In this document: positions 196 to 57,675 of the stretch, piece after piece | How positions within the stretch are numbered: position 1 is the stretch's first letter | How the letters are laid out: the number at the start of each line of letters is the position of its first letter | Source of the DNA: Candidatus Doudnabacteria bacterium | Lineage (GTDB): Bacteria > Patescibacteriota > Doudnabacteria > UBA920 | Reading direction: 5' to 3' | Length of the DNA stretch: 64,000 bases | NCBI GenBank assembly: GCA_016788665.1 | Contig: JAEUSF010000004.1 | Coordinates: 29,407 to 93,406 of the forward strand | Notes under the pieces: generated by a model | Told to the model about the DNA's origin: nothing | Seen by the model: only the letters and a program-made list of their open reading frames with translations | Databases searched by the model: none | Made by a program: the position numbers and the translations under genes

Positions 196-205
196 TACTC
201 TCTTT

Positions 206-235
206 GGTATTCGGAATTTGGTATTTGGAATTTAC
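206..235. repeat. Intergenic copy of the GAATTTGGTATTTGGAATTT-type dispersed AT-rich repeat
   Basis: Sequence ggtattcggaatttggtatttggaatttac; family members are listed in the findings. Confidence 0.4.
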
Positions 236-3568: not shown

Positions 3569-3982
3569 TTACTTTCTCTTAGCTCCGTATTTAGAGCGAC
3601 TACCTTTTCTCCCGTCGACTCCGAGAGTATCTAACTTACCGCGAACAATATGGTAACGGACACCAGGCAAATCTTTTACCCTGCCGCCGCGTATCATAAC
3701 CACACTGTGTTCCTGAAGGTTATGCCCTATTCCAGGAATATAGGCAATAACTTCCATACCGTTTGTCAGCTTAATTTTGGCAACTTTACGCAAAGCCGAG
3801 TTTGGCTTTTTTGGTGTGGTGGTATAGACCTTAAGACACACTCCGCGCATAAAAGGAGCACCTTTCCTTAAAGGGACTTCCCTATTCTTTAAAAGGTTCA
3901 ATCTATGCTGCAAAGCCGGAGACTTGGACTTGGCTCTGAGCGGCGATCTGCCTTTTCTAACTAACTGGTTGATTGTTGGCAT
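3569..3982 (-). CDS. rpsL: 30S ribosomal protein S12
   Basis: [12 protein letters not shown]..; 137 aa; canonical S12. Confidence 0.95.
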
Positions 3983-4065
3983 TTTGCTAGCTGGTAGCTA
4001 GTAGCTAGTAGGTTTGTAACCTGTATTTCCTACAAGCTACCACCTACTTCCTACAAGCTAAATAA
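3983..4065 (-). promoter_or_regulatory. Structured leader immediately upstream of the rpsL start (long imperfect inverted repeat)
   Basis: GCTAGCTGGTAGCTAGTAGCTAGTAGG ... CCTACAAGCTACCACCTACTTCCTACAAGC; the arms are near-complementary (GGTAGCT[A/T]GTAGG) and the tract abuts the ATG. Confidence 0.3.
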
Positions 4066-7574: not shown

Positions 7575-7650
7575 TATACTCCTCCAACCAAAGTTTTTAC
7601 TGCCAAAAAATAGGTTTCAAAAATTTAAAAACTATTTTTTTGCAACAAAA

Positions 7651-7676
7651 GAAAAACCCCCTTTGCAGGGGGTTTT
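7651..7676. terminator. Rho-independent terminator hairpin AAAACCCCC-tttgc-AGGGGGTTTT
   Basis: Perfect G/C stem flanked by A- and T-runs. Confidence 0.6.
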
Positions 7677-7848
7677 AAGCTTAAATACTTTAAAACGCCA
7701 CCTGCTTTAGGGGGTAATAATAATTATGCTGCTGTTCTGTACGCATTTCATATATGTATATATTATCAAAACAAACTTAGTTGTCAAATAAAAAAGCCGA
7801 TAAAAGTGGCTTTATGTGCAATTGCCTAAATGGCAAAATACAAAGCAC

Positions 7849-8235
7849 TTATTCGACTTGGGAGTTGTGAGAACTTGTCCCTAAAGATGGCCTAGGCGGC
7901 GGCGAATTATAGCGGGTGCCGGTAAAGGCATCCATTCCTTTGCGCTCACACAGAAGATTCAGCTCCTCGTCACTCAATTCTTCTACTACACGAATTTCCG
8001 GCTCCTGGCTAATCACGATTTTTCCCTCTTGTTTACTGGCGTTAAGGCACATTTTCATGCGCCCAAAGCATAGCCAACTTTTTAGATACGCTTTGGGAAT
8101 ATGAAATTTTTGGGAAGAGACAGCGCCGAATGTCTCTGTGTTATGTGGTTTGGAAAAGATTAGCACACGTGCTAGAATCTTTTTTTGTACACAAACAACA
8201 CTCGGCGCCGGCAAGGTTGGGGGCAGTCCGCCCAT
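7849..8235 (-). CDS. Questionable ORF (128 aa) in the GC-rich island
   Basis: No RBS and a low-complexity product; may be non-coding. Confidence 0.15.
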   Translation of the reverse strand: MGGLPPTLPAPSVVCVQKKILARVLIFSKPHNTETFGAVSSQKFHIPKAYLKSWLCFGRMKMCLNASKQEGKIVISQEPEIRVVEELSDEELNLLCERKGMDAFTGTRYNSPPPRPSLGTSSHNSQVE

Positions 8236-8940
8236 ACATTAGTTCTGAACAAAGCAAGCCTATGTTAGCTTTTAGCTGCCGATTACTTGGTCAACTCGTT
8301 TGTCAGTTGGAGATCAATAACAGCATCGCTGAAGCTCTTGCTGAGCTTCAAACTTAGCCCGACCTGGCTTGTTACCGGTTAACCGAAGAAGTGCCTCGGT
8401 CCAGTCTCGAACTGTGTCGCTTTTAGGTTCTTGATCCCTGTTTTTCGTCGGAATAAGGTCTGGTTCCTCATTCATCGGAAACATCCTCCGGTTTGATTGC
8501 CCGCCGACAGAGGCGGGCTTGGAGACTTACAAGGCAGTCAGCGTCGGTTAACGCTTTTTTAGTTGAACTCGTTTGTGACGAGCTCAATATAGACTGCCCA
8601 AATTGGCGGGACCTACGCGGCGGTGTTCGTTTCCGCTCGATCGACACAGAATTCCTGCAGGGCAGGCTCCGTGGAAGGTAAAAAGGATAATAAGTATCAA
8701 CCTCTCCTTCTCGGTCCCTAATTGTCGGGTGGATTTCGAATCCAGATAATTGTTCTCTTTCTCTCTCCGTGCGCTTACCCAAAAGAGAACAACCTATCTG
8801 GTTCTATTGGAAGCCACTTGCTTCACCTGGCTCCAGCCAGAGGCCGCTATTTAGCGGTCACAGCCACCCATAACTTTTGTAGACTTTGCGTCCACAGGCA
8901 TACAAACTTTTAAAAATTTATACGCCTGCAAACGCATTTT

Positions 8941-8966
8941 AAAACCCCGCTTCTTGCGGGGTTTAG
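8941..8966. terminator. Terminator-like hairpin AAAACCCCGC-ttcttgc-GGGGTTT, a near-copy of the 7651 hairpin
   Basis: Same AAAACCCC..GGGGTTT architecture as 7651-7676; followed by a second stem AAGGTGT..ACACCTT. Confidence 0.45.
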
Positions 8967-9184
8967 AAGGTGTGGTTTTTAATCCGTGTTTACACCTTAC
9001 CCCGCGCGCCAAAAAGTACGGCCTTCACAAAGACCGGGCGAATGGAAATAAGATTGTATATATTCTGTATCATCTTAAAAAGAATATTATACCCAATGTT
9101 TACTGTTGTCAAGCAAGTTATCAACAAGAGACAAAATGCAAAATTAAAAATTCAGAATGCAGAAATAAAAAGCCGTTAAAATTA

Positions 9185-9556
9185 TTATAAGTTTTTTTTT
9201 GCTGAGTTACTTGAGGCAATCATAATAGCCAATATCTCATGAGCTTCTTGCAAAAGGCTTTCCATTTTATTAAACGGTAATAGAGCCAAATCAATTAACA
9301 ACTCCATCCAAAAAATTGATTCATCGCATTCTTCAATCACAATACCAATTTTCGATATAAACTCAAGCTTAGACCGCGCTCTACACGCTGCCCTATAATT
9401 TGCCCCAACAGAGGTTCCGCATCGGAATAATTGATTCCCAATAATACTTCCTTCGTAATTTTTTGGAAGAGCTCGGCAGAGCTTAACTATCCTTATTGTA
9501 AAAGACTTTGTTCGGATTTTTAAGTCTTTGTCGGGCATAACATTTTGCACTCTCAA
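9185..9556 (-). CDS. Four-helix-bundle protein (23S rRNA intervening-sequence protein family)
   Basis: GSIIGNQLFRCGTSVGANYRAA motif characteristic of the TIGR02436/PF05635 family; 123 aa. Confidence 0.65.
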   Translation of the reverse strand: MRVQNVMPDKDLKIRTKSFTIRIVKLCRALPKNYEGSIIGNQLFRCGTSVGANYRAACRARSKLEFISKIGIVIEECDESIFWMELLIDLALLPFNKMESLLQEAHEILAIMIASSNSAKKNL

Positions 9557-15839: not shown

Positions 15840-18800
15840 TTATATTACTAAGTTTATTATCCTACCCTTAATAAAAATCACTCTCTTTATAGTGTCACCC
15901 ACCAAAGCCTGCTTTACCGGCTCAAGCTTTAAAGCTTCATTCTTCACAGTTTCCTCACTAGCATTTAGAGCAACCCTGAGCTTACCCCTCACCTTGCCAT
16001 TTATTTGAACCACGATTTCGCTTTCACTTTCCAAAATTTTTGACTCGTCGAACAGAGGCCAAACCGCCTGTTGCAATGAGGTAACTTTATTCTTTTTCAG
16101 CTTAAGCACTTCCGCGCTCCTTAGCGCTAATTCTTCAGTTATATAGGGCGCAAAAGGATGAAGGACTTTTATGAATTTCTGCAAAGATTCCAAAGTAATA
16201 AAATCATCTTTAATCTGATTATGAAACTCCATAAAAGCAGAAATTGACGTATTGAACCTAAAATTTTCTATATCTTCCGTAACTTTCTTTATAAGCTTGT
16301 TTAGCTCCCTTTCCACTTTTTGGGTGTCTTGTACCCCTTTTTCCCCCTTCCCTTTTCTTGCCTCATGGGGTGCTTCAATTATTTCATTTGCCCAATTCCA
16401 AACCCTATCTAAAAACCTAGAAACCCCAACCACACCTGTATCAGACCAAGCAACCATAGACTCATGAGGACCTAAAAACATTTCATACATACGCAAAACA
16501 TCGGCCCCGTATTGCTTAACAATAGTCTGCGGATCCACAACGTTACCTCGGCTCTTAGACATTTTTTCACCGTCGGGGCCTAAAATTATACCGTGCGGTT
16601 TTCTTAACACATAAGGCTCCTTTTGACTAACCAAGCCCTGGTCATATAAAAACAAATTCCAAAAGCGACTATACAACAAATGCAAAGTCGTATGCTCCAT
16701 ACCGCCAAAGTACACATCCACCGGAGACCAATATTTTTGCTTTTGTAAGTCTGAAAATTTATTCTTATTTTTTGGGTCCATGTACCGTAGCCAGTACCAA
16801 GAGCTACCTGCCCACTGGGGCATAGTATTGGTTTCTCGCCATGCGGTTTTTTTACATATAGGGCACTTGGTTTTTAGCCAGGACTTTATATCTGCGAGCG
16901 GCGACTCACCTGTTCCGGTAGGTTCATATTTTTTTACATTAGGCAATTTAACAGGTAAATCTTTTTCCGGCACCGGCACCGCACCATGATCTTCACAGTG
17001 TATAAGCGGTATAGGTTCACCCCAATAACGTTGACGACTAAAAACCCAATCACGAAGTTTATAATTAACCACCTGAGTACCAAAAATCTCTGCCATTTTA
17101 GGTATTGCAACATCAGTACCCAAACCATCAAATTGTCCTGAATTAATGACCTTACCGTAGTCGGTAAAACACAAGTCTGAACACTTTTTTGTTATAAAAA
17201 GTAAATCTTTGTACCCTGTATCTGTAGCTTTGGTTTCTAAAACGTCAAGGACTGTAAAACCCAATCCATGTAGTTCTTTACGCATTTCCCCTTCTGTCCA
17301 ATATTTAAAATACCTCTCACTTTCCATCTTTGGATCTTTACCAAACCATTCCTTTGATTTTGCAAAATCCATCACAGAGAAAGCAAAAATACCACCGCGT
17401 TTTAAACTAGCATTAATACTTTTAACAATGATTTTAAACTGATCAGAATTGAAATGCAACAAAACCTTATTTGCAAAGATCAAATCATAAGGCTTAACTT
17501 CAATTTTATCTGTTAAAAGATTAAGCTTAATTACTTCCTTGCCCTGAGATTTCTGATATTCGATAAAGCTTTGTACTCCATCTGTCCTTTGTACTTTGTA
17601 TCCTAAACTTTCTACATAATTTGCATCTAACCCACGACCACTTCCCAATTCTAAAATGCTGGAATCTTTACTCGAAATTTCTTTGAGAAATTTATCTACC
17701 CATAGCTTATATTCACCTTCGACCTGCCTTACTGTTTTTTCTACATATTTACTAGCATTATTTTCATAGGTTTCTAAAGTTGCAAGTTGCTTTGGGTCTA
17801 AAGGAACAATAGGAACAACAACAGTTTTTATAGGCAAATTATATTTTTTCGCAAACTCAAAATCGCGCTGGTCGTGCGCAGGCACAGCCATAATAGCTCC
17901 TGTACCATAACTTCCTAAAACGTAATCCGCAACAAATACCGGAACTTCTTCTTTAGTAGCCGGATTTATAGCCTTTATACCTTTAAGCTCTACTCCGGTT
18001 TTTTCCCTTCCTTCTGCTGTTCTTTCTATATCTGCCTTAGACTTAGCTTTTTCAATGTATTTATTAACTTCTTTATAATTTGAAATTTGTAACTTTAAAT
18101 TTGAAATTATTTCATGTTCTGGAGCAATAACCATATAAGTCGCACCAAAAATAGTATCTGGGCGAGTAGTAAAAACTTTTATTCTTAATTCATAATTCTT
18201 AATTCCAAATTCAATTTCCGCACCCGTGCTTTTTCCAATCCAATTTTCCTGCTGCAATTTAACCGCTTCAGGCCACTGAGGCAGCTCTTTTAAACCTTGA
18301 AGTAGTTTTTCTGCATAAGCGGTAATTCTTAAATACCACTGCCTAAGCTCTTTTTTCTCTACCACGGTTCCGCAGCGTTCACATTTGCCGTCTATAACTT
18401 CTTCATTGGCAAGTCCAGTTTTGTCTTTTGGACACCAGTTAATAAGCCCTGTAGATTCAAAAGCCAGACCTTTTTTATAAAACTGTAAAAATAACCACTG
18501 TGTCCATTTATAATACTCCGGACTTGTAGTATTTATTTCCCTGCCCCAGTCAAACGAAAGCCCCCAAGAAAGCATTTGTTTTTTGGCATTGGCTACATTT
18601 TTCTTGGTAGTAATAGAAGGATGCACACCCATTTTTATAGCATAGTTTTCTGCAGGCAAACCAAAAGCATCCCACCCCATAGGAAATAGAGTTTCAAAGC
18701 CCTTCATACGATGATACCTAGCATAAACGTCCGCAGCTACATAAGGTCTTAAATGGCCCATGTGAAGTCCGGCGCCAGAGGGATAGGGAAATTCAACCAA

Positions 18801-18908
18801 AATATATTTTTTTGGCTTTTTTTTACTCTCGGTAGCTTTAAAAGGTTTTTTTGAAAGCCACTGCTTTTGCCATTTAGCTTCTACTTTTCCTGGATTGTAC
18901 TTTTGCAT
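15840..18908 (-). CDS. leuS: Leucyl-tRNA synthetase with an in-frame class I SAM-dependent methyltransferase domain insertion (about aa 361-585)
   Basis: HMGH, the TTRPDT editing motif, KMSKS and the anticodon-binding C-terminus are all present. At 1022 aa it exceeds the usual ~800-860. The insert carries ILELGSGRGLDANY (motif I) and LKRGGIFAFSV (post-II). Confidence 0.9.
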   Translation of the reverse strand: MQKYNPGKVEAKWQKQWLSKKPFKATESKKKPKKYILVEFPYPSGAGLHMGHLRPYVAADVYARYHRMKGFETLFPMGWDAFGLPAENYAIKMGVHPSITTKKNVANAKKQMLSWGLSFDWGREINTTSPEYYKWTQWLFLQFYKKGLAFESTGLINWCPKDKTGLANEEVIDGKCERCGTVVEKKELRQWYLRITAYAEKLLQGLKELPQWPEAVKLQQENWIGKSTGAEIEFGIKNYELRIKVFTTRPDTIFGATYMVIAPEHEIISNLKLQISNYKEVNKYIEKAKSKADIERTAEGREKTGVELKGIKAINPATKEEVPVFVADYVLGSYGTGAIMAVPAHDQRDFEFAKKYNLPIKTVVVPIVPLDPKQLATLETYENNASKYVEKTVRQVEGEYKLWVDKFLKEISSKDSSILELGSGRGLDANYVESLGYKVQRTDGVQSFIEYQKSQGKEVIKLNLLTDKIEVKPYDLIFANKVLLHFNSDQFKIIVKSINASLKRGGIFAFSVMDFAKSKEWFGKDPKMESERYFKYWTEGEMRKELHGLGFTVLDVLETKATDTGYKDLLFITKKCSDLCFTDYGKVINSGQFDGLGTDVAIPKMAEIFGTQVVNYKLRDWVFSRQRYWGEPIPLIHCEDHGAVPVPEKDLPVKLPNVKKYEPTGTGESPLADIKSWLKTKCPICKKTAWRETNTMPQWAGSSWYWLRYMDPKNKNKFSDLQKQKYWSPVDVYFGGMEHTTLHLLYSRFWNLFLYDQGLVSQKEPYVLRKPHGIILGPDGEKMSKSRGNVVDPQTIVKQYGADVLRMYEMFLGPHESMVAWSDTGVVGVSRFLDRVWNWANEIIEAPHEARKGKGEKGVQDTQKVERELNKLIKKVTEDIENFRFNTSISAFMEFHNQIKDDFITLESLQKFIKVLHPFAPYITEELALRSAEVLKLKKNKVTSLQQAVWPLFDESKILESESEIVVQINGKVRGKLRVALNASEETVKNEALKLEPVKQALVGDTIKRVIFIKGRIINLVI
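18077..18109. repeat. Dispersed AT-rich repeat copy inside leuS (encodes ISNLKLQISNYK)
   Basis: aatttgaaatttgtaactttaaatttgaaatta. Confidence 0.5.
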
Positions 18909-19114
18909 ATGTAAGTTTGACTTAAAATATGGGAATTGATAAATTGTGATTCAGGAGGACCTTAAATGGTCACAGAATGGATATCTTATCCGAAAGACGT
19001 GCTCGACGAAGATTGCAGCACACAACAACCGAGGATAACTACACAGCCCGATACCCCCGTAACCCCTTCGACTGACAAACAGCTTGAATTAGACTGGGAC
19101 CGACACTGCCGGGA

Positions 19115-19966: not shown

Positions 19967-20082
19967 GAAATTAAGAAGTAAGAATTAGGAAGTAAGAATC
20001 AAGCAAAAATCACACTTGATTTTTTAGTAAATGATAGTAAAATAACCTAAACGCCATTTTGGTGTAATAACAAGGAGCGAGC

Positions 20083-23304: not shown

Positions 23305-24192
23305 TTATATTTTTTCCCGTAATTTTTTTAAAATTTTAATATCTTCTTTGACTTTATCATGCTCGGTTTCTAAAATCAAGGGAAAGCTGGATTTGTTTTG
23401 AAATTTGTAATTTGAAATTAGAAATTTCATAAAAGCAGAGAAGCCTTTCTCCCCAATCTCTCCTTCACCAATATGCTCATGCCTGTCTTTGCGGCCTCCC
23501 AACGGAACTTTCGAGTCATTTACATGAGACATTTTAAGCCATTTTAGACCAATTGCCTTGTCAAACTTTTTAAAGGTCTCAGCCGCGGTTTTAGGAGTCC
23601 TAAAGTCATACCCACCAGAAAAAGCATGCTGAGTGTCAAAACAGATACCTCCAAAAGATTTATACTTCAAAAGTGGCTCCATAAGTTCAGCCAGTTCTTC
23701 GAATGTATCACCTATAACCTCACCGGCACCTGCTGCTATTTCCAAAAGAAATTTAGTTTTTATAATTTTTGCCGAGGCTTCGTACTTATTGAGCACCGCA
23801 ATAAAACCTTTTTTCGCCTGCTCCATACCCTTTTCCTGACCCAAGTCCTTAAAACTACCCATGTGGATCATAAGTAAACTTGCCCCCAAAGAATTTGCTC
23901 GAACAAGCTCTTCTGAAACAACGGAAATAGACCCATGGAACGTTGTTTTTTTGGCAGACCCAAAATTCACAATATAGGGCGCATGAACCACAAACTCCGA
24001 AAATTTATACTTCTCCATTTCGGACTTAAACCTCTCTATATCTGCCTCTAAAATTTTAGGTGCAGGCCCTCCCATAGGAGGTCTAGTAAAAATCTGAAAA
24101 ATTTCACACTCGAGGTCTGCCGCATTTTTTGGGGCATTCCAAACCCCACCGGCAGCACTCACATGACAACCTATTTTAAACATATTCTCCAT
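23305..24192 (-). CDS. nfo: Endonuclease IV (AP endonuclease, TIM barrel)
   Basis: Conserved His/Glu/Asp metal ligands and the C-terminal PLILET motif; 295 aa. Contains a 7-aa ISNYKFQ stretch encoded by the dispersed repeat. Confidence 0.85.
   Translation of the reverse strand: MENMFKIGCHVSAAGGVWNAPKNAADLECEIFQIFTRPPMGGPAPKILEADIERFKSEMEKYKFSEFVVHAPYIVNFGSAKKTTFHGSISVVSEELVRANSLGASLLMIHMGSFKDLGQEKGMEQAKKGFIAVLNKYEASAKIIKTKFLLEIAAGAGEVIGDTFEELAELMEPLLKYKSFGGICFDTQHAFSGGYDFRTPKTAAETFKKFDKAIGLKWLKMSHVNDSKVPLGGRKDRHEHIGEGEIGEKGFSAFMKFLISNYKFQNKSSFPLILETEHDKVKEDIKILKKLREKI
23396..23427. repeat. Dispersed AT-rich repeat copy inside nfo (encodes ISNYKFQ)
   Basis: ttttgaaatttgtaatttgaaattagaaattt. 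Confidence 0.5.
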
Positions 24193-25930: not shown

Positions 25931-27010
25931 TTAAAGAATATTATACTTTATTTCTGTCGGCACTTGAATAAATTTATTAACCTTGTTATTTTCCAAATAA
26001 ACCAAATCCTCAATCCGCACACCGCCTTTTTTTGGCATATATACACCGGGTTCAATACTAAATACCATACCATTTTCCAACAAATCTTTTGAATTCGGGG
26101 AAAGGTTGGGAAGCTCATGAATCTCAAGTCCTGTTCCATGCCCTAAACTGTGAATAAAAAATTGGTCTAACTTTTTTTCGGCCAAAATTTCCACAGACTT
26201 TTTATACACTCGGTCACCGGTAACAATATGAGTCTTACCGCCACCCTGCGACATCCCCCTGTCAATATAACGAATAGACTCCGAGTAAGCTCTTTCAACC
26301 TGATTATAAGCCTCTTCCATTTTCCTATTGGCTTTTTTTATAAAGACAGTCCGAGTAAAATCACTGCAATAATTTTTATATTTAAAACCAAAATCCAGTA
26401 TTATAGTTTCCCCTGCTTTTAACTCTTTATTGTCGGGCACATGATGTGGAATTGCGGCGTTAACTCCGCTTGCAACAATGGGCGGGAAAGAAACACTTTC
26501 GGCTCCAAGTCTCAAACCTGCATTTTTAATAAAGTGCGCGAGTTTAATTTCAGTCATGCCTGGCTTCACAATTTCTCTTTTTACGAGAATAAAGACCTTT
26601 TCTACAATTTGCATAGACTTTTTTACAAGTCTTATCTCGCCTAGCTCTTTTACCTGTCTCATTTCGTCGGCCTTGCTCCTTGCTGGCAGAATTTTGCATT
26701 TGAAATTTGATATTTGAAATTTACTCTTCAAATACTCTCCTTCTCCATACGTGAAGTCATAGCCGATATAAAGCTCCTTACAACCCTTTAAGTATTGTGC
26801 AATATTTTTTAAGCGGTCAACTTTTTTCACCCAAGTAATTTTTTCAAGACCGCCTCCAAAAGCGACGATATTATTTTTTGTGACCAATAAAAAATCATCT
26901 CCCTGCAAAGCCAAAGGCCTGCCTGTCAAATAAAACAGGCTCTCTTTTTTCTTTATAAGAATAGGGTTTGAAAGGGATTTTTGAAGGTTTTTAAGACGAT
27001 TTGAATACAT
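25931..27010 (-). CDS. pepP: M24-family Xaa-Pro aminopeptidase/prolidase
   Basis: HSLGHGTGLEIHE, ...IEPGVY..., GGVRIEDLV metal-ligand motifs; 359 aa. Confidence 0.8.
   Translation of the reverse strand: MYSNRLKNLQKSLSNPILIKKKESLFYLTGRPLALQGDDFLLVTKNNIVAFGGGLEKITWVKKVDRLKNIAQYLKGCKELYIGYDFTYGEGEYLKSKFQISNFKCKILPARSKADEMRQVKELGEIRLVKKSMQIVEKVFILVKREIVKPGMTEIKLAHFIKNAGLRLGAESVSFPPIVASGVNAAIPHHVPDNKELKAGETIILDFGFKYKNYCSDFTRTVFIKKANRKMEEAYNQVERAYSESIRYIDRGMSQGGGKTHIVTGDRVYKKSVEILAEKKLDQFFIHSLGHGTGLEIHELPNLSPNSKDLLENGMVFSIEPGVYMPKKGGVRIEDLVYLENNKVNKFIQVPTEIKYNIL
26698..26722. repeat. Dispersed AT-rich repeat copy inside pepP (encodes KFQISNFK)
   Basis: atttgaaatttgatatttgaaattt. Confidence 0.5.
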
Positions 27011-35288: not shown

Positions 35289-35424
35289 TTTAATTTCCTT
35301 TTTCAGAATGACATCCAGATTAACGACGACTTACAAAAAGTCTTCGCAATATCCAGCTGCCATACTGACACTTAATTTTAAAACTTGAAGCCCGAATCCC
35401 AAAATCCGAAAATTCTTAACTTTT

Positions 35425-35454
35425 TTCGAATTTCGTATTTCGTGCTTCAAATTT
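35425..35454. repeat. Intergenic relative of the dispersed AT-rich repeat
   Basis: ttcgaatttcgtatttcgtgcttcaaattt; compare 206-235. Confidence 0.3.
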
Positions 35455-41285: not shown

Positions 41286-41346
41286 ACCTTTGGTTGTTTA
41301 ATACTTTATAAAATTTTACATTTTAAATTTTTAATTTTGCTTTCCC

Positions 41347-52591: not shown

Positions 52592-52781
52592 GCTTATTTT
52601 AGATAATTATATCATAGTTATTGACTACTTTAATCTTTTTTTGTATAATTGTACTAATTTATAGAACTCCCCGGCTGACACAGCAACCGGCATTGTACTC
52701 TTACCAATACTGTGTAAGAGTTTTATTGTTTTTAGGTTCTCCAAATTTTTCATTTTGATTTTTCATTTCAATTTGAAACAT

Positions 52782-57006: not shown

Positions 57007-57043
57007 ACAGTCGACACCTATTTGGTGAAGACTGTCTTTTTTT
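57007..57043 (+). terminator. Weak terminator-like hairpin plus T8 after the PEP-CTERM gene
   Basis: ACAGTC..GACTGT stem with a long loop, followed by CTTTTTTT. Confidence 0.3.
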
Positions 57044-57665
57044 ATTTATATTCAACAATTTTACCAGCCTGAATTTCCACCCTGTCAGCCAGCCTTAAAT
57101 TTTTTACCTGCTCTTTGCTCAATATTTTAAAATGTTTTATTTTGTCCAAAGCTTTAGGGACTGCAAATAAATTTTTTTCAGTCGTTCTCCAGTCAAGAAA
57201 GTTAAAAGTTCTTAAGTCGCATAAACTACTATACTCTCTTAAATTCTTTCTTCCCCGCTCGTCAAAATACTCATGAAAAAAAGAAAGTGCCAGCTCCCTT
57301 ATATTTTTATAAATAGGCTCGCGGTACCTTAAAACCGCGTGGTTGGTTTTACTTAACGCACCCAAGCTGCCATATTTTTCAAATACGCAAACCACATGGT
57401 CAAAATCATCCTTGTTAGCTCTTAAGTCCATAACCAAAGGCTTGTGGCCGCAAAATTCCAAAGCAGCCGCGGCAAACATAGCCCCTTCCATGCAATGGGC
57501 TTTTTTAGTTTGCATAACAAAACGCGGCGACATACAAGTTTCCCCGCCTTTTTCAAAGTTAAACTTTAAAGAATTCAAATAATCTTGAATTTTCTGGGGT
57601 GTACTTAAACGCTTAAATACCTCGAGCTCGCTTTTCGTGTATAAATTCTTAATTCCTAATTCCAT
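57042..57665 (-). CDS. Hypothetical protein with a transglutaminase-like Cys-His-Asp core (putative)
   Basis: AHCMEGAMFAAAALEFCGHKP resembles the G-C-x-x-F-A TGase-core pattern, with His/Asp downstream; 207 aa. Confidence 0.35.
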   Translation of the reverse strand: MELGIKNLYTKSELEVFKRLSTPQKIQDYLNSLKFNFEKGGETCMSPRFVMQTKKAHCMEGAMFAAAALEFCGHKPLVMDLRANKDDFDHVVCVFEKYGSLGALSKTNHAVLRYREPIYKNIRELALSFFHEYFDERGRKNLREYSSLCDLRTFNFLDWRTTEKNLFAVPKALDKIKHFKILSKEQVKNLRLADRVEIQAGKIVEYK

Positions 57666-57675
57666 ATTCCAAGTT

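Follow-up and report, generated by a model that had tools for sequence, protein, structure and literature searches.

The ISN[YFL]K segments of three Doudnabacteria genes are probably in-place heptanucleotide repeats rather than copies of an inserted element

What places nearly the same AT-rich segment, read as ISN[YFL]K, in three unrelated genes within 64 kb of DNA? The stretch in question, hereafter the window, comprises 64,000 nucleotides of a Candidatus Doudnabacteria genome with a G+C content of 39%. A reading made without database searches had noted the segment in leuS, nfo and a pepP-like gene, as well as relatives in non-coding DNA, and had taken it for a dispersed unit of 21-24 bp that inserts in frame in the manner of the Rickettsia palindromic elements (RPEs). 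We find every one of the claimed copies in place, and translation yields the peptides that had been described: Nfo has ISNYKFQ, LeuS has ISNLKLQISNYK and the M24 peptidase has KFQISNFK. The host genes, all three on the - strand, and the repeats within them are as follows:

15840-18908, - strand: leuS, host gene (Pfam tRNA-synt_1_2, tRNA-synt_1, Anticodon_1 and Methyltransf_23)
18072-18108, - strand: leuS site 2 array (AAATTTC/AAATTWH), right after APEH; TRF period 7, 4.6 copies; encodes IISNLKLQISNYK
18177-18214, - strand: leuS site 1 array, unit GAATTWW, before VFTTRPDT; TRF period 7, 4.7 copies, and lag-7 scan (lag-7 identity 0.66); encodes EFGIKNYELRI
23305-24192, - strand: nfo (endonuclease IV), host gene (Pfam AP_endonuc_2, 8.5e-34; PDB 1QTW, 5.8e-42)
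23396-23429, - strand: heptanucleotide array (AAATTTC)~4.4 in nfo; TRF period 7, 4.4 copies, 83% matches, and lag-7 scan; encodes FLISNYKFQN by translation
25931-27010, - strand: M24 family Xaa-Pro peptidase (pepP-like), host gene (Pfam Peptidase_M24, 3.7e-58; PDB 4RGZ, 1.2e-45)
26689-26722, - strand: array in the gene of the M24 Xaa-Pro peptidase, (AAATTTC/AAATATC)~3.6; TRF; encodes KFQISNFKC

The motif is indeed commoner than base composition predicts. With up to three mismatches, the 23-mer TTTGAAATTTGWWAYTTGAAATT has eight overlapping matches at four loci (2455-2484, 18079-18108, 23397-23431 and 26699-26721), against 0.05 expected from shuffles, and none of 100 shuffles reaches eight; the exact 10-mer TTGAAATTTG occurs four times against 0.99 expected, a weakly significant excess. 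The claimed dispersed unit of 21-24 bp, however, is actually a 7-bp tandem, (AAATTTC)n, of three to five units. TRF reports period 7 at all four ISNxK loci (~3.6-4.7 copies) and at nine further loci, which brings the period-7 arrays of the window to 13. Likewise, a stringent lag scan of the window returns seven regions at lag 7 against none in controls, and zero to one at lags 5, 6, 8, 9 and 10. The non-coding 'relatives' of the motif are repeats as well, but those at 203-233 (TTTGGWA), 35424-35443 (TTTCGWA) and 52744-52774 (ATTTTYN) are heptamer arrays of other units. The intergenic and leader arrays, for which no strand is given, are:

203-233: intergenic (TTTGGWA)4.4, between the fusA stop, which it closely follows, and a terminator hairpin
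2454-2498: intergenic (AAATTHC)~4.6 with a degenerate tail, 78 nt upstream of the fusA start
3983-4015: (TAGCTAG)3.4, with its end 5 nt before the ATG of a 137-aa gene (3569-3982, - strand)
9132-9166: intergenic (CAAAATG)4.9, 19 nt downstream of the stop of a 23S_rRNA_IVP-family ORF
19969-20003: tatD leader array, CTTACTT/CTTAATT on the gene strand, ~5 units
35424-35443: short intergenic (TTTCGWA)2.9, by TRF
41309-41340: intergenic (AAATTTT)4.0, directly downstream of the stop of a 579-aa gene
52744-52774: degenerate array of period 6/7 (ATTTTTC/ATTTCA), with its end 8 nt before tRNA-His (52783)
57642-57672: (GGAATTA/AGAATTW) across the start codon of a 207-aa ORF (57042-57665, - strand), by TRF and lag-7 scan

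The array at 2454-2498 is inverted with respect to the coding AAATTTC copies, and the one at 203-233 is inverted relative to the 2454 array; the strong terminator hairpin lies at 154-190. The tatD leader array ends 5 nt upstream of the tatD ATG (gene start 19966, - strand), and both its position and its unit type are kept in at least nine lineages. The leader array of a 395-aa gene is also conserved across lineages, and the array at 57642-57672 encodes the N-terminus of the 207-aa ORF, MELGIKN.

These arrays belong to a much larger population. Our census covered the window and 80 Doudnabacteria loci, 1.47 Mb in all, with a third-order Markov model as the control, and it yielded 169 period-7 arrays against 10 in the control (~17-fold); the neighbouring periods 6 and 8 gave 23 and 38. 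The 169 arrays are built from 96 distinct units, which grade without break into other heptamers, and they measure ~30 bp (10-90% range 23-36 bp) in coding and non-coding sequence alike. Their density is ~2-4 per 10 kb in 33 loci, and 37 related loci have none; perfect lag-7 runs are enriched only in the array-rich loci, with none in 37 array-free Doudnabacteria loci of similar G+C. While ~63% of the arrays lie in ORFs, 37% fall into the ~10% of the sequence that is non-coding, and 35 of 61 distances between an array and the adjacent gene start are within -2 to +9 nt.

In our view, each ISN[YFL]K segment is probably a simple-sequence repeat (SSR) of a heptanucleotide, with three to five units and ~30 bp, and a member of this genome-wide population in a Doudnabacteria subclade; misalignment in a register of 7 nt would have produced the arrays where they now stand, and selection would then have filtered them. 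The arrays occupy permissive sites in place, that is, spacers, where they often extend as far as the start codon that follows, and variable segments on protein surfaces, and their units vary between sites and between lineages. As to the process, a chance proto-repeat of two units, for which ATTnnnAATT, underlying the conserved I-x-N-Y of LeuS, is a candidate, would have been spread by misaligned replication or repair in the 7-nt register, be it through slipped-strand mispairing or through unequal or misaligned conversion, and the arrays would then have been homogenised through concerted evolution. In ORFs, only the stop-free strand would survive selection, the unit that would put a stop in frame would be the deviating one, and the net change in length would be whatever the protein tolerates. 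The coding copies are most likely without any function in themselves; copies adjacent to start codons may or may not affect expression.

The host proteins allow the question of insertion to be addressed site by site. Relative to T. thermophilus LeuS (2V0C), the LeuS of the window has no gap at site 1 and a single additional residue at site 2. Moreover, ISNYKEV is found in an array-free orthologue (L048) at the same position and with the same length, written in different synonymous codons, and the variants ISNYNDV, ISNIDEV, ISNFDQV and ISNWDEV occur in L035, L051, L034 and L042, respectively. With the peptide at the orthologous site and the array absent, leuS drops out as an insertion host, and ISNYKEV is ancestral in LeuS. 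From it, the array extends 5' in the array-rich lineages (L033, L030, L032, L022 and the window). At one leuS site, L030 carries (AATTTCC)4.6 and L032 (AAGTTCC)4.7, both perfect, a difference that points to concerted evolution; perfect arrays lie in a LeuS hairpin whose length equals that of T. thermophilus LeuS. As a separate observation, a methyltransferase domain is inserted into LeuS at aa 394-555.

The M24 peptidase is no insertion host either, as its length equals that of its nearest relatives, with +2 aa relative to 4RGZ. Among the three host proteins, only Nfo has a longer loop, both in comparison with E. coli Nfo and with short-form orthologues. Its segment from the conserved F to PLILET is, as had been pointed out, seven residues longer than in E. 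coli Nfo (1QTW), with the gain split into alignment gaps of 4 + 3; judging from this alignment and from TIM-barrel topology, the array would sit between helix alpha7 and strand beta8 (PLILET), in the segment that connects them. The gain over the comparators ranges from +3 to +7 aa, yet other heptamer arrays occupy the same site: in sister lineages, the loop holds arrays of at least ten different units, and those of different lineages include AAATTTC, TAAAGGA, AATGCAG, TATCCAA, GTTAATT, TTGTCAA, GAAATTA and AAATCTT. A 28-nt span with at least 15/21 identity at lag 7 is present in 26 of 139 Nfo orthologues, whereas none of the 139 reaches this identity in the loop at lags 5, 6, 8 or 9, and longer loops go with a higher local density of arrays (rho 0.52, p 1e-6). 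The closest relative of the window has 81% Nfo identity in the genome scan and 75% in the metagenome scan; an exact-protein look-up of the window Nfo returned no match, and pairs of near-identical loci stem from the same assemblies. The Nfo loop of other lineages also holds GC-rich, multi-hairpin in-frame inserts that look element-like, and the window contains no copy of these.

Clade-wide, the expectation of insertions of 7 or 14 residues is not borne out. For 90 coding arrays, the net gain in length over array-free orthologues has modes at +4 and 0 aa, with five arrays at +7 aa, four at +14 aa and 15 at zero.

The agreement in frame and orientation between the three genes, which had been cited in favour of insertion, is real, but it is uninformative, since it is arithmetically forced. 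Because 7 is coprime to 3, a heptamer array in an ORF must give one cyclic peptide of seven residues in one orientation; a common peptide and a shared 'frame' are therefore no evidence of insertion. The three frames of (AAATTTC)n read KFQISNF, NFKFQIS and ISNFKFQ, a single cyclic peptide, while the opposite strand, (TTTGAAA)n, has TGA in all frames. Where the consensus predicts a stop triplet, it is kept at 0 of 59 in-frame positions, but at 129 of 153 (84%) out-of-frame positions. Stop-containing consensus units as such are not depleted in coding arrays (53 of 100 against a proportion of 0.53 expected), because it is the specific in-frame unit that is altered. Among non-coding arrays, units with stops on both strands are enriched (37 of 65 against 29% expected).

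The origin by misalignment in place also meets with difficulties. Slippage predicts steps of +/-7 nt and broad length distributions, but the arrays are uniformly ~30 bp long, and the 15 coding arrays without net change include the perfect ones in the LeuS hairpin; such in-place rewriting without change in length stays unexplained by the misalignment model. Against a purely local origin stand the recurrence of one unit at four of the 13 window sites and the sharing of units, which is higher within loci (14%) than between them (7.9%; permutation p 0.0005). The retention of the tatD leader array across lineages further hints at constraint. A bolder account, to which we give only a small chance, is that the arrays are not products of ordinary slippage, but of lineage-specific resynthesis of ~30-nt patches from a template displaced by exactly 7 nt, which would rewrite even leuS at constant length, and that start-adjacent arrays were co-opted as Shine-Dalgarno-independent leaders. 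If displaced-template rewriting were true, the clade would reveal the mechanism that biases bacterial SSRs towards heptamers, for which an explanation has long been lacking.

The enrichment at gene starts could also indicate functional cis-elements. The arrays might be multimeric RNA or DNA sites that bind one ligand per 7 nt, for instance a cold-shock-domain-type protein, or unstructured, G-poor leaders in genomes where Shine-Dalgarno (SD) sequences are rare, with the coding copies as spill-over or in dual use. The distances to gene starts, the conserved leader arrays of tatD and the 395-aa gene, the uniform length of ~30 bp and the presence of an SD-like core in only 16% of genes would all fit this account. 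Nevertheless, we regard it as unlikely: most arrays lie inside ORFs, in orientations without obvious reference, and the leader arrays are indel hot spots, as indels concentrate there even between the ~90% identical genomes L032 and L101. With 96 different units, any array binder would have to be sequence-blind, and a sequence-blind binder provides no reason for the identity of neighbouring units. Three specific roles were considered and set aside. As for arrays replacing the SD sequence, 7% of array-adjacent genes have one against 16% of the rest, a difference that is not significant (p 0.29), and SD use is rare in the clade generally. For a promoter role, there is no enrichment of sigma-70-like sites, one weak match overlapping an array; for a structured RNA, the folds are weak, and there is no Rfam match beyond tRNAs.

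Slightly more doubtful still is a spread of the AAATTTC family between sites by ectopic recombination or conversion, which would make it dispersed, but not transposable. AAATTTC is the unit of four of the 13 window arrays against two of 152 elsewhere (binomial p 9e-5), despite a background rank of only 21 of 1171, and other genomes repeat units too (AAGGGCT three times in L011, AAGTACT three times in L032 and AACTCGC twice in L046). A length of ~30 bp is, in addition, close to the minimum for homologous pairing. However, the flanks share no homology through which a conversion tract could reach a new site, the LeuS copy appears to have been seeded by the ancestral motif, and the four host sites concerned each hold a different unit in L030. 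An equal excess could result if AAATTTC were preferred for its composition or its compatibility with ORFs.

The small non-autonomous mobile element of the sequence-only reading, RPE- or MITE-like, 21-24 bp long and inserting in frame in genes as well as in intergenic DNA, now appears very improbable. It would account for one 23-mer at four loci in 64 kb, for the over-use of AAATTTC in the window genome and for the long Nfo loop, and it has a parallel in the GC-rich hairpin inserts of this loop in other lineages. Yet two of the three host genes contradict it, LeuS showing no insertion and PepP none relative to its near relatives, with ISNYKEV ancestral. The arrays have no defined ends and neither terminal nor internal palindromes, fold weakly (-4 to -7 kcal/mol) and consist of units that grade into other heptamers; the gains are not of 7 or 14 aa, and the agreement in frame is forced. 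The four ISNxK copies have no hairpin in common (MFE -4.3 to -7 kcal/mol, z-scores +0.95 to -2.7). RPEs, by comparison, are MITE-like, palindromic true insertions of ~150 bp that form discrete families with a conserved peptide (PMC10969869). The arrays are like them in being DNA-level repeats that are translated in frame inside unrelated housekeeping proteins, where the fold tolerates it, but they span 21-38 bp in ORFs, are non-palindromic, have boundaries that grade into the flanks and involve no insertion in two of three genes; the length of ~150 bp, the palindrome and the conserved element consensus and peptide of RPEs are all absent. Next to no likelihood is left for chance low complexity, given AT-rich DNA, or for selection on an ISNxK/KFQ peptide at the protein level. 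The low G+C content, the modest excess of the 10-mer and ISNY as a conserved LeuS motif could be cited in their favour, but against them stand the 23-mer count, a period-7 excess that is absent at neighbouring periods, and nucleotide identity between units whose reading frames differ, an identity that selection on the protein could not generate. The view of a segment shaped at the DNA level holds.

If the segments are SSRs that arose in place, they are of a kind that has been described before in cyanobacteria and in a small number of other bacteria, with Beggiatoaceae and Xanthomonas among the closest cases. According to a survey of genomes with many long SSRs (Mrazek et al., 2007, as cited in PMC4679880 and PMC4692102), heptanucleotide repeats are the most abundant class of long SSRs in most genomes surveyed, for which polymerase slippage is the hypothesis put forward. 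Known examples are the STRR-type repeats of Calothrix and Nostoc, GGGAATC in Xanthomonas and GGGGAYT in Nostoc (PMC4692102). The Doudnabacteria arrays share with bacterial heptanucleotide SSRs the tandem 7-nt units, the period-7 excess, many loci per genome, lineage-specific presence, and probably also wide variation in length and sequence between related genomes; as in STRR-type repeats, the units are arranged head-to-tail, occur at multiple loci of restricted lineages and are enriched in non-coding DNA and at start codons. Unlike the known cases, with their few favoured G-rich units, they belong to the CPR/Patescibacteria, are AT-rich and diverse in unit, and are short and uniform (3-5 units), with the majority in ORFs, including essential housekeeping genes.

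In marine Beggiatoaceae and in some Cyanobacteria and Bacteroidetes, direct repeats of TAACTGA are found upstream of start codons, and their stop-free orientation reads LSVISYQ (MacGregor, 2015; PMC4679880). Like these repeats, which have 2-6 copies per set, our arrays cluster directly upstream of start codons and have stops in all frames in one orientation, with a repeating peptide of seven residues in the other, the only one tolerated in ORFs. The TAACTGA repeats differ in that one heptamer dominates, chiefly in intergenic DNA, and related heptamers are rarely repeated, whereas our arrays have many units and are mostly coding. In Nostoc PCC 7120, (TTTTGAA)3-4 lies upstream of recF, and (GACYAAT)8 overlaps the recO start codon (bioRxiv 10.1101/2022.06.06.494920); the likeness extends to a similar AT-rich unit in 3-4 copies, within or abutting the start codon, but for the Nostoc heptamers a regulatory effect was reported in reporter assays. 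Both for TAACTGA and for the heptamers of Nostoc, translational or regulatory roles have been put forward, and one CspB monomer binds one heptamer (PMC4679880; bioRxiv 10.1101/2022.06.06.494920).

The tandem repeats of Borgs are likewise pervasive, genome-specific, fast-evolving and A-biased, create new peptide segments, and lie in ORFs in about half of the cases. Their unit lengths in ORFs are all divisible by three, so that they form amino-acid tandem repeats (PMC9879509); with a unit of 7 nt, by contrast, one DNA unit is read in three frames, and slippage by a single unit would shift the frame. In phase-variable contingency loci, an SSR within or upstream of a surface or variable gene acts as a switch through its unit number; here, the arrays are hosted by the housekeeping genes leuS, nfo, pepP and, through its leader, tatD, which argues against such loci. 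A DNA uptake sequence, that is, one over-represented 9-12-mer, was also rejected, given the 10-mer count and the diversity of units.

With no RPE-like mobile element in the window, a false annotation lead is removed. At the same time, heptanucleotide SSRs are extended to the Candidate Phyla Radiation, where they are found in loops of the essential enzymes LeuS, Nfo and PepP and in start-codon leaders, with signs that orthologous hot spots evolve in concert. The clade includes sister lineages rich in arrays and others free of them, as well as perfect arrays in segments of fixed length; it is thereby a natural comparative system, which bears on why bacterial SSRs favour 7-nt units and on slippage versus templated rewriting.

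As a minor observation, inverted pairs of arrays flanking genes do not stand out as a class, as same-unit pairs are 24 direct and 27 inverted; individual suggestive pairs occur at fusA in the window, at a 117-aa gene in L011 and in L007, where they form a hairpin of -28.5 kcal/mol.

All the motif copies claimed in the sequence-only reading are present in the window, and their number lies above compositional expectation: a degenerate 23-mer searched with up to three mismatches gave 8 matches against 0.05 expected, and 0 of 100 shuffles reached 8, so the observation is real and non-random. The proposed unit of 21-24 bp does not hold, as Tandem Repeats Finder resolves each copy into 3.6-4.6 tandem units of 7 bp; the ISNYK-type segments are encoded by the heptamer AAATTTC. 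The arrays concerned are the following.

23397-23427, array in nfo (- strand gene, 23305-24192); the + strand reads TTTGAAATTTGTAATTTGAAATTAGAAATTT
18072-18108, array in leuS (- strand gene, 15840-18908), after APEH (site 2); the + strand reads TTTATAATTTGAAATTTGTAACTTTAAATTTGAAATT
18177-18214, second leuS array, before VFTTRPDT (site 1), period 7 by Tandem Repeats Finder
26698-26722, array in the gene of the M24 Xaa-Pro peptidase PepP (- strand, 25931-27010); the + strand reads ATTTGAAATTTGATATTTGAAATTT
2454-2498, array in the spacer upstream of fusA, reverse complement of the coding motif

Tandem Repeats Finder reports 13 period-7 arrays in the window, with units as varied as TTTGGWA, TAGCTAG, CAAAATG, ATTCWTA, AAKTAAG, TTTCGWA, AAATTTT and others. 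An independent scan for self-identity at lag 7 found 7 regions versus 0 in Markov controls, while lags 5, 6, 8, 9 and 10 yielded 0-1 regions each in the same window. AAATTTC, which ranks 21 of 1171 in background frequency, is re-used in this genome (4 of 13 arrays versus 2 of 152 elsewhere, p 9e-5). In the phase encoding N-F (23397-23427, 26698-26722 and 18077-18108), it reads A AAT TTC and matches the X XXY YYZ slippery pattern of -1 frameshifting, a match that is probably coincidental, because other arrays have other units.

The closest match to the window Nfo is 81% identical, and the relatives of this protein assign the window to Candidatus Doudnabacteria (Patescibacteria/CPR); many of the records are labelled 'uncultured Saccharibacteria'. 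In a census of the window and 80 fetched Doudnabacteria loci (1.47 Mb; individual loci are denoted by L numbers), we counted 169 period-7 arrays of at least 2.8 copies, compared with 10 in a third-order Markov control and with 23 and 38 arrays of periods 6 and 8. They comprise 96 distinct units, typically in 4-5 copies, and span a median of 30 bp (10-90% range 23-36 bp), alike in coding and non-coding DNA. About 63% lie within ORFs; given a coding density of 90%, non-coding DNA is enriched ~3.6-fold. Units are shared more often within a locus than between loci (14% versus 7.9%, p 0.0005). In 33 loci the density is 2-4 arrays per 10 kb, and 37 related loci of comparable G+C contain none; the distribution is patchy, as at least one array occurs in 28/33 of the loci nearest to the window, 7/33 of the next and 8/14 of the most distant.

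The three host genes do agree in the frame and orientation of the motif, as had been pointed out, but this carries no weight as evidence for insertion. Since 7 and 3 have no common factor, a run of three units passes through every reading phase, and (AAATTTC)n yields a single cyclic peptide whatever the frame (KFQISNF, NFKFQIS or ISNFKFQ), whereas the complementary (TTTGAAA)n has TGA in all frames. An ORF with an AAATTTC array must carry it in this orientation only and necessarily encodes ISN[FY]K/KFQ; the agreement is forced by this arithmetic and by the TGA on the other strand. Across the census, a sense-strand stop triplet predicted by the array consensus is kept at 0 of 59 in-frame positions but at 129 of 153 (84%) out-of-frame positions, which identifies the arrays as DNA repeats patched just enough for an open ORF. 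Among non-coding arrays, units that have stops on both strands are over-represented (37/65 versus 29% expected).

A precise insertion of 7 or 14 residues had been predicted. Compared with array-free orthologues, the commonest net length differences among 90 coding arrays are instead +4 aa (17 arrays) and 0 aa (15 arrays), with only 5 at +7 and 4 at +14. In LeuS, an insertion is ruled out: in some 40 orthologues the segment after APEH does not vary in length and follows the pattern L-x3-I-[SKET]-N-[YWF]-x-[ED]-V, and the ancestral-type ISNYKEV also occurs in the array-free L048 through different synonymous codons, with near-variants in L035, L051, L034 and L042. Relative to T. thermophilus LeuS, site 1 shows no gap and site 2 one additional residue. 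The I-x-N-Y codons (ATTnnnAATTA) harbour a pre-existing 7-nt proto-repeat, and the stretch 5' of this motif has, in array-rich lineages, turned into a heptamer array based on that local unit (GAAAATT in L033, AGAATCA in L030, GAATTAC in L032, CAAATTT in the window), with a lag-7 identity of 0.56-0.68 versus about 0.3 elsewhere. At site 1, the arrays of L030, (AATTTCC)4.6, and L032, (AAGTTCC)4.7, are both perfect and differ by a single substitution found in all units, which is concerted evolution.

Relative to its near relatives, the PepP copy is no insertion either: they match it in length, and this site holds arrays of other units in them (AAGATTA, AGTTAAA, AAAGCGC and others). PepP of the window exceeds the shortest forms by 4 aa and the peptidase structure 4RGZ by 2 aa. 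For Nfo, an insertion holds in part: the 7 additional residues relative to the E. coli protein stand, but the excess over short-form Doudnabacteria orthologues is about 3-5 aa, and in sister lineages at least 10 further units form arrays in this loop. A 28-nt window reaching at least 15/21 identity at lag 7 is present in 26 of 139 orthologues, and at lags 5, 6, 8 or 9 in none. Longer loops go with a higher local array density (rho 0.52, p 1e-6), with a minor circularity in that density counts the nfo array itself. From the alignment to E. coli Nfo (1QTW) and TIM-barrel topology, the site would be the alpha7-to-beta8 connection, which presumably faces away from the metal site. The earlier interpretation was right about a DNA-level origin and largely wrong about a mobile insert.

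Several of these sites have further peculiarities. LeuS site 1, before VFTTRPDT, even accommodates a whole extra domain in many orthologues, a Ser_hydrolase / alpha-beta-hydrolase insert of roughly 190 aa. The window LeuS (1022 aa) has a SAM-methyltransferase domain (Pfam Methyltransf_23/11) after the editing domain (aa 394-555, 17244-17729). Orthologues with extra inserted domains include the following.

L007, 15230-18199, LeuS orthologue
L033, 15342-18419, LeuS orthologue

In the Nfo loop of L004, L005, L010, L011, L014, L015, L021 and L068, and also L083, L084 and L097, GC-rich in-frame inserts of 40-100 nt replace or accompany the heptamer array. They fold as two or three hairpins (-16 to -37 kcal/mol; e.g. 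tcccgcaaaagcggga, ctcccctgaagggag, tgccttcggca) and some lineages share homologous inserts at this position; the window contains no copy. They resemble the small dispersed repeats inside heptamer arrays that Elhai et al. reportedly described in Nostoc in 2008. Other housekeeping proteins have orthologous array hot spots as well, among them a ~500-aa protein of L006, L011, L015, L020, L027 and L039 with GIMNYELRIKN, GIMKYELGIRN and EISNYQFLISNF among the array peptides at one site; at several of these hot spots, the net length is below that of array-free orthologues.

Most non-coding arrays end -2 to +9 nt from a start codon (35 of 61 distances to the adjacent gene start), often filling the entire spacer of co-directional genes.

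19969-20003, window, start-adjacent array in the tatD leader
3983-4015, window, start-adjacent array
L001, L007, L009, L011, L012, L020-L023, L032, L033, L046 and other loci, start-adjacent arrays

Similar units recur in the tatD leader of at least 9 lineages, and the (TACTTTA)n leader of a 395-aa gene is likewise recurrent. When L032 is compared with L101 (~90% identical), leader arrays account for nearly all indels. The arrays fold weakly, and no promoter-like, terminator-like or Rfam signals are attached to them. In array-rich loci including the window, an SD-like core (GGAG/GAGG/AGGA, -20 to -3) precedes only 16% of ATG-start ORFs, with start codons uncurated, and G enrichment upstream of starts is absent; the sequences suggest that initiation is largely SD-independent in this clade. 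SD-core frequency does not differ significantly between genes with an adjacent array and the rest. Inverted same-unit arrays flank single genes, namely fusA (window 203-233 versus 2454-2485) and a 117-aa gene (L011 18709-18739 versus 19083-19112), and lie back to back in L007 (18936-18997; hairpin of -28.5 kcal/mol); overall, same-unit pairs show no orientation bias (24 direct versus 27 inverted).

Heptanucleotide SSRs are an established class of bacterial repeats, and the window arrays have its defining features. Known examples are the heptamer TAACTGA, arrayed ahead of start codons in Beggiatoaceae and subject to the same stop/peptide logic (LSVISYQ) (PMC4679880), and, in Nostoc, (TTTTGAA)3-4 close to start codons (bioRxiv 10.1101/2022.06.06.494920). 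The novelty lies in the phylum (CPR), the unit diversity and the high share of copies within essential genes. We demonstrate a DNA-level process in a 7-nt register, which is lineage-restricted, acts at many sites and homogenises arrays, and after which a purifying filter keeps frames open. Misaligned replication or repair may propagate chance proto-repeats; array hot spots are probably just permissive sites. PMC4679880 and PMC4692102 attribute this idea, polymerase slippage, to Mrazek et al. (2007); a scheme of this type does not explain why 7 is preferred, the tight array length of ~30 bp, fixed-length rewriting without net length change, the re-use of AAATTTC or the excess of within-locus unit sharing. 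The suggested likeness to Rickettsia palindromic elements fails, since RPEs/MITEs are true insertions of ~150 bp in discrete families with a conserved peptide (PMC10969869), all of which the window arrays lack. Borg amino-acid tandem repeats differ in that their unit lengths are multiples of three (PMC9879509). For the question why heptamers are favoured among bacterial SSRs, this clade is a clean system for comparison.

Over the whole window (1-64000), GC skew stays negative (cumulative -2.75), with about 80% of ORFs on the - strand and no skew switch, hence no replication origin or terminus. A stretch of about 1.6 kb (7575-9184) has no convincing ORF, Pfam or Rfam match, and the listed ORFs 7849-8235 and 8468-8782 look spurious; its G+C of 0.45-0.54 exceeds the window mean, and it adjoins a 23S_rRNA_IVP-family ORF (9185-9556).
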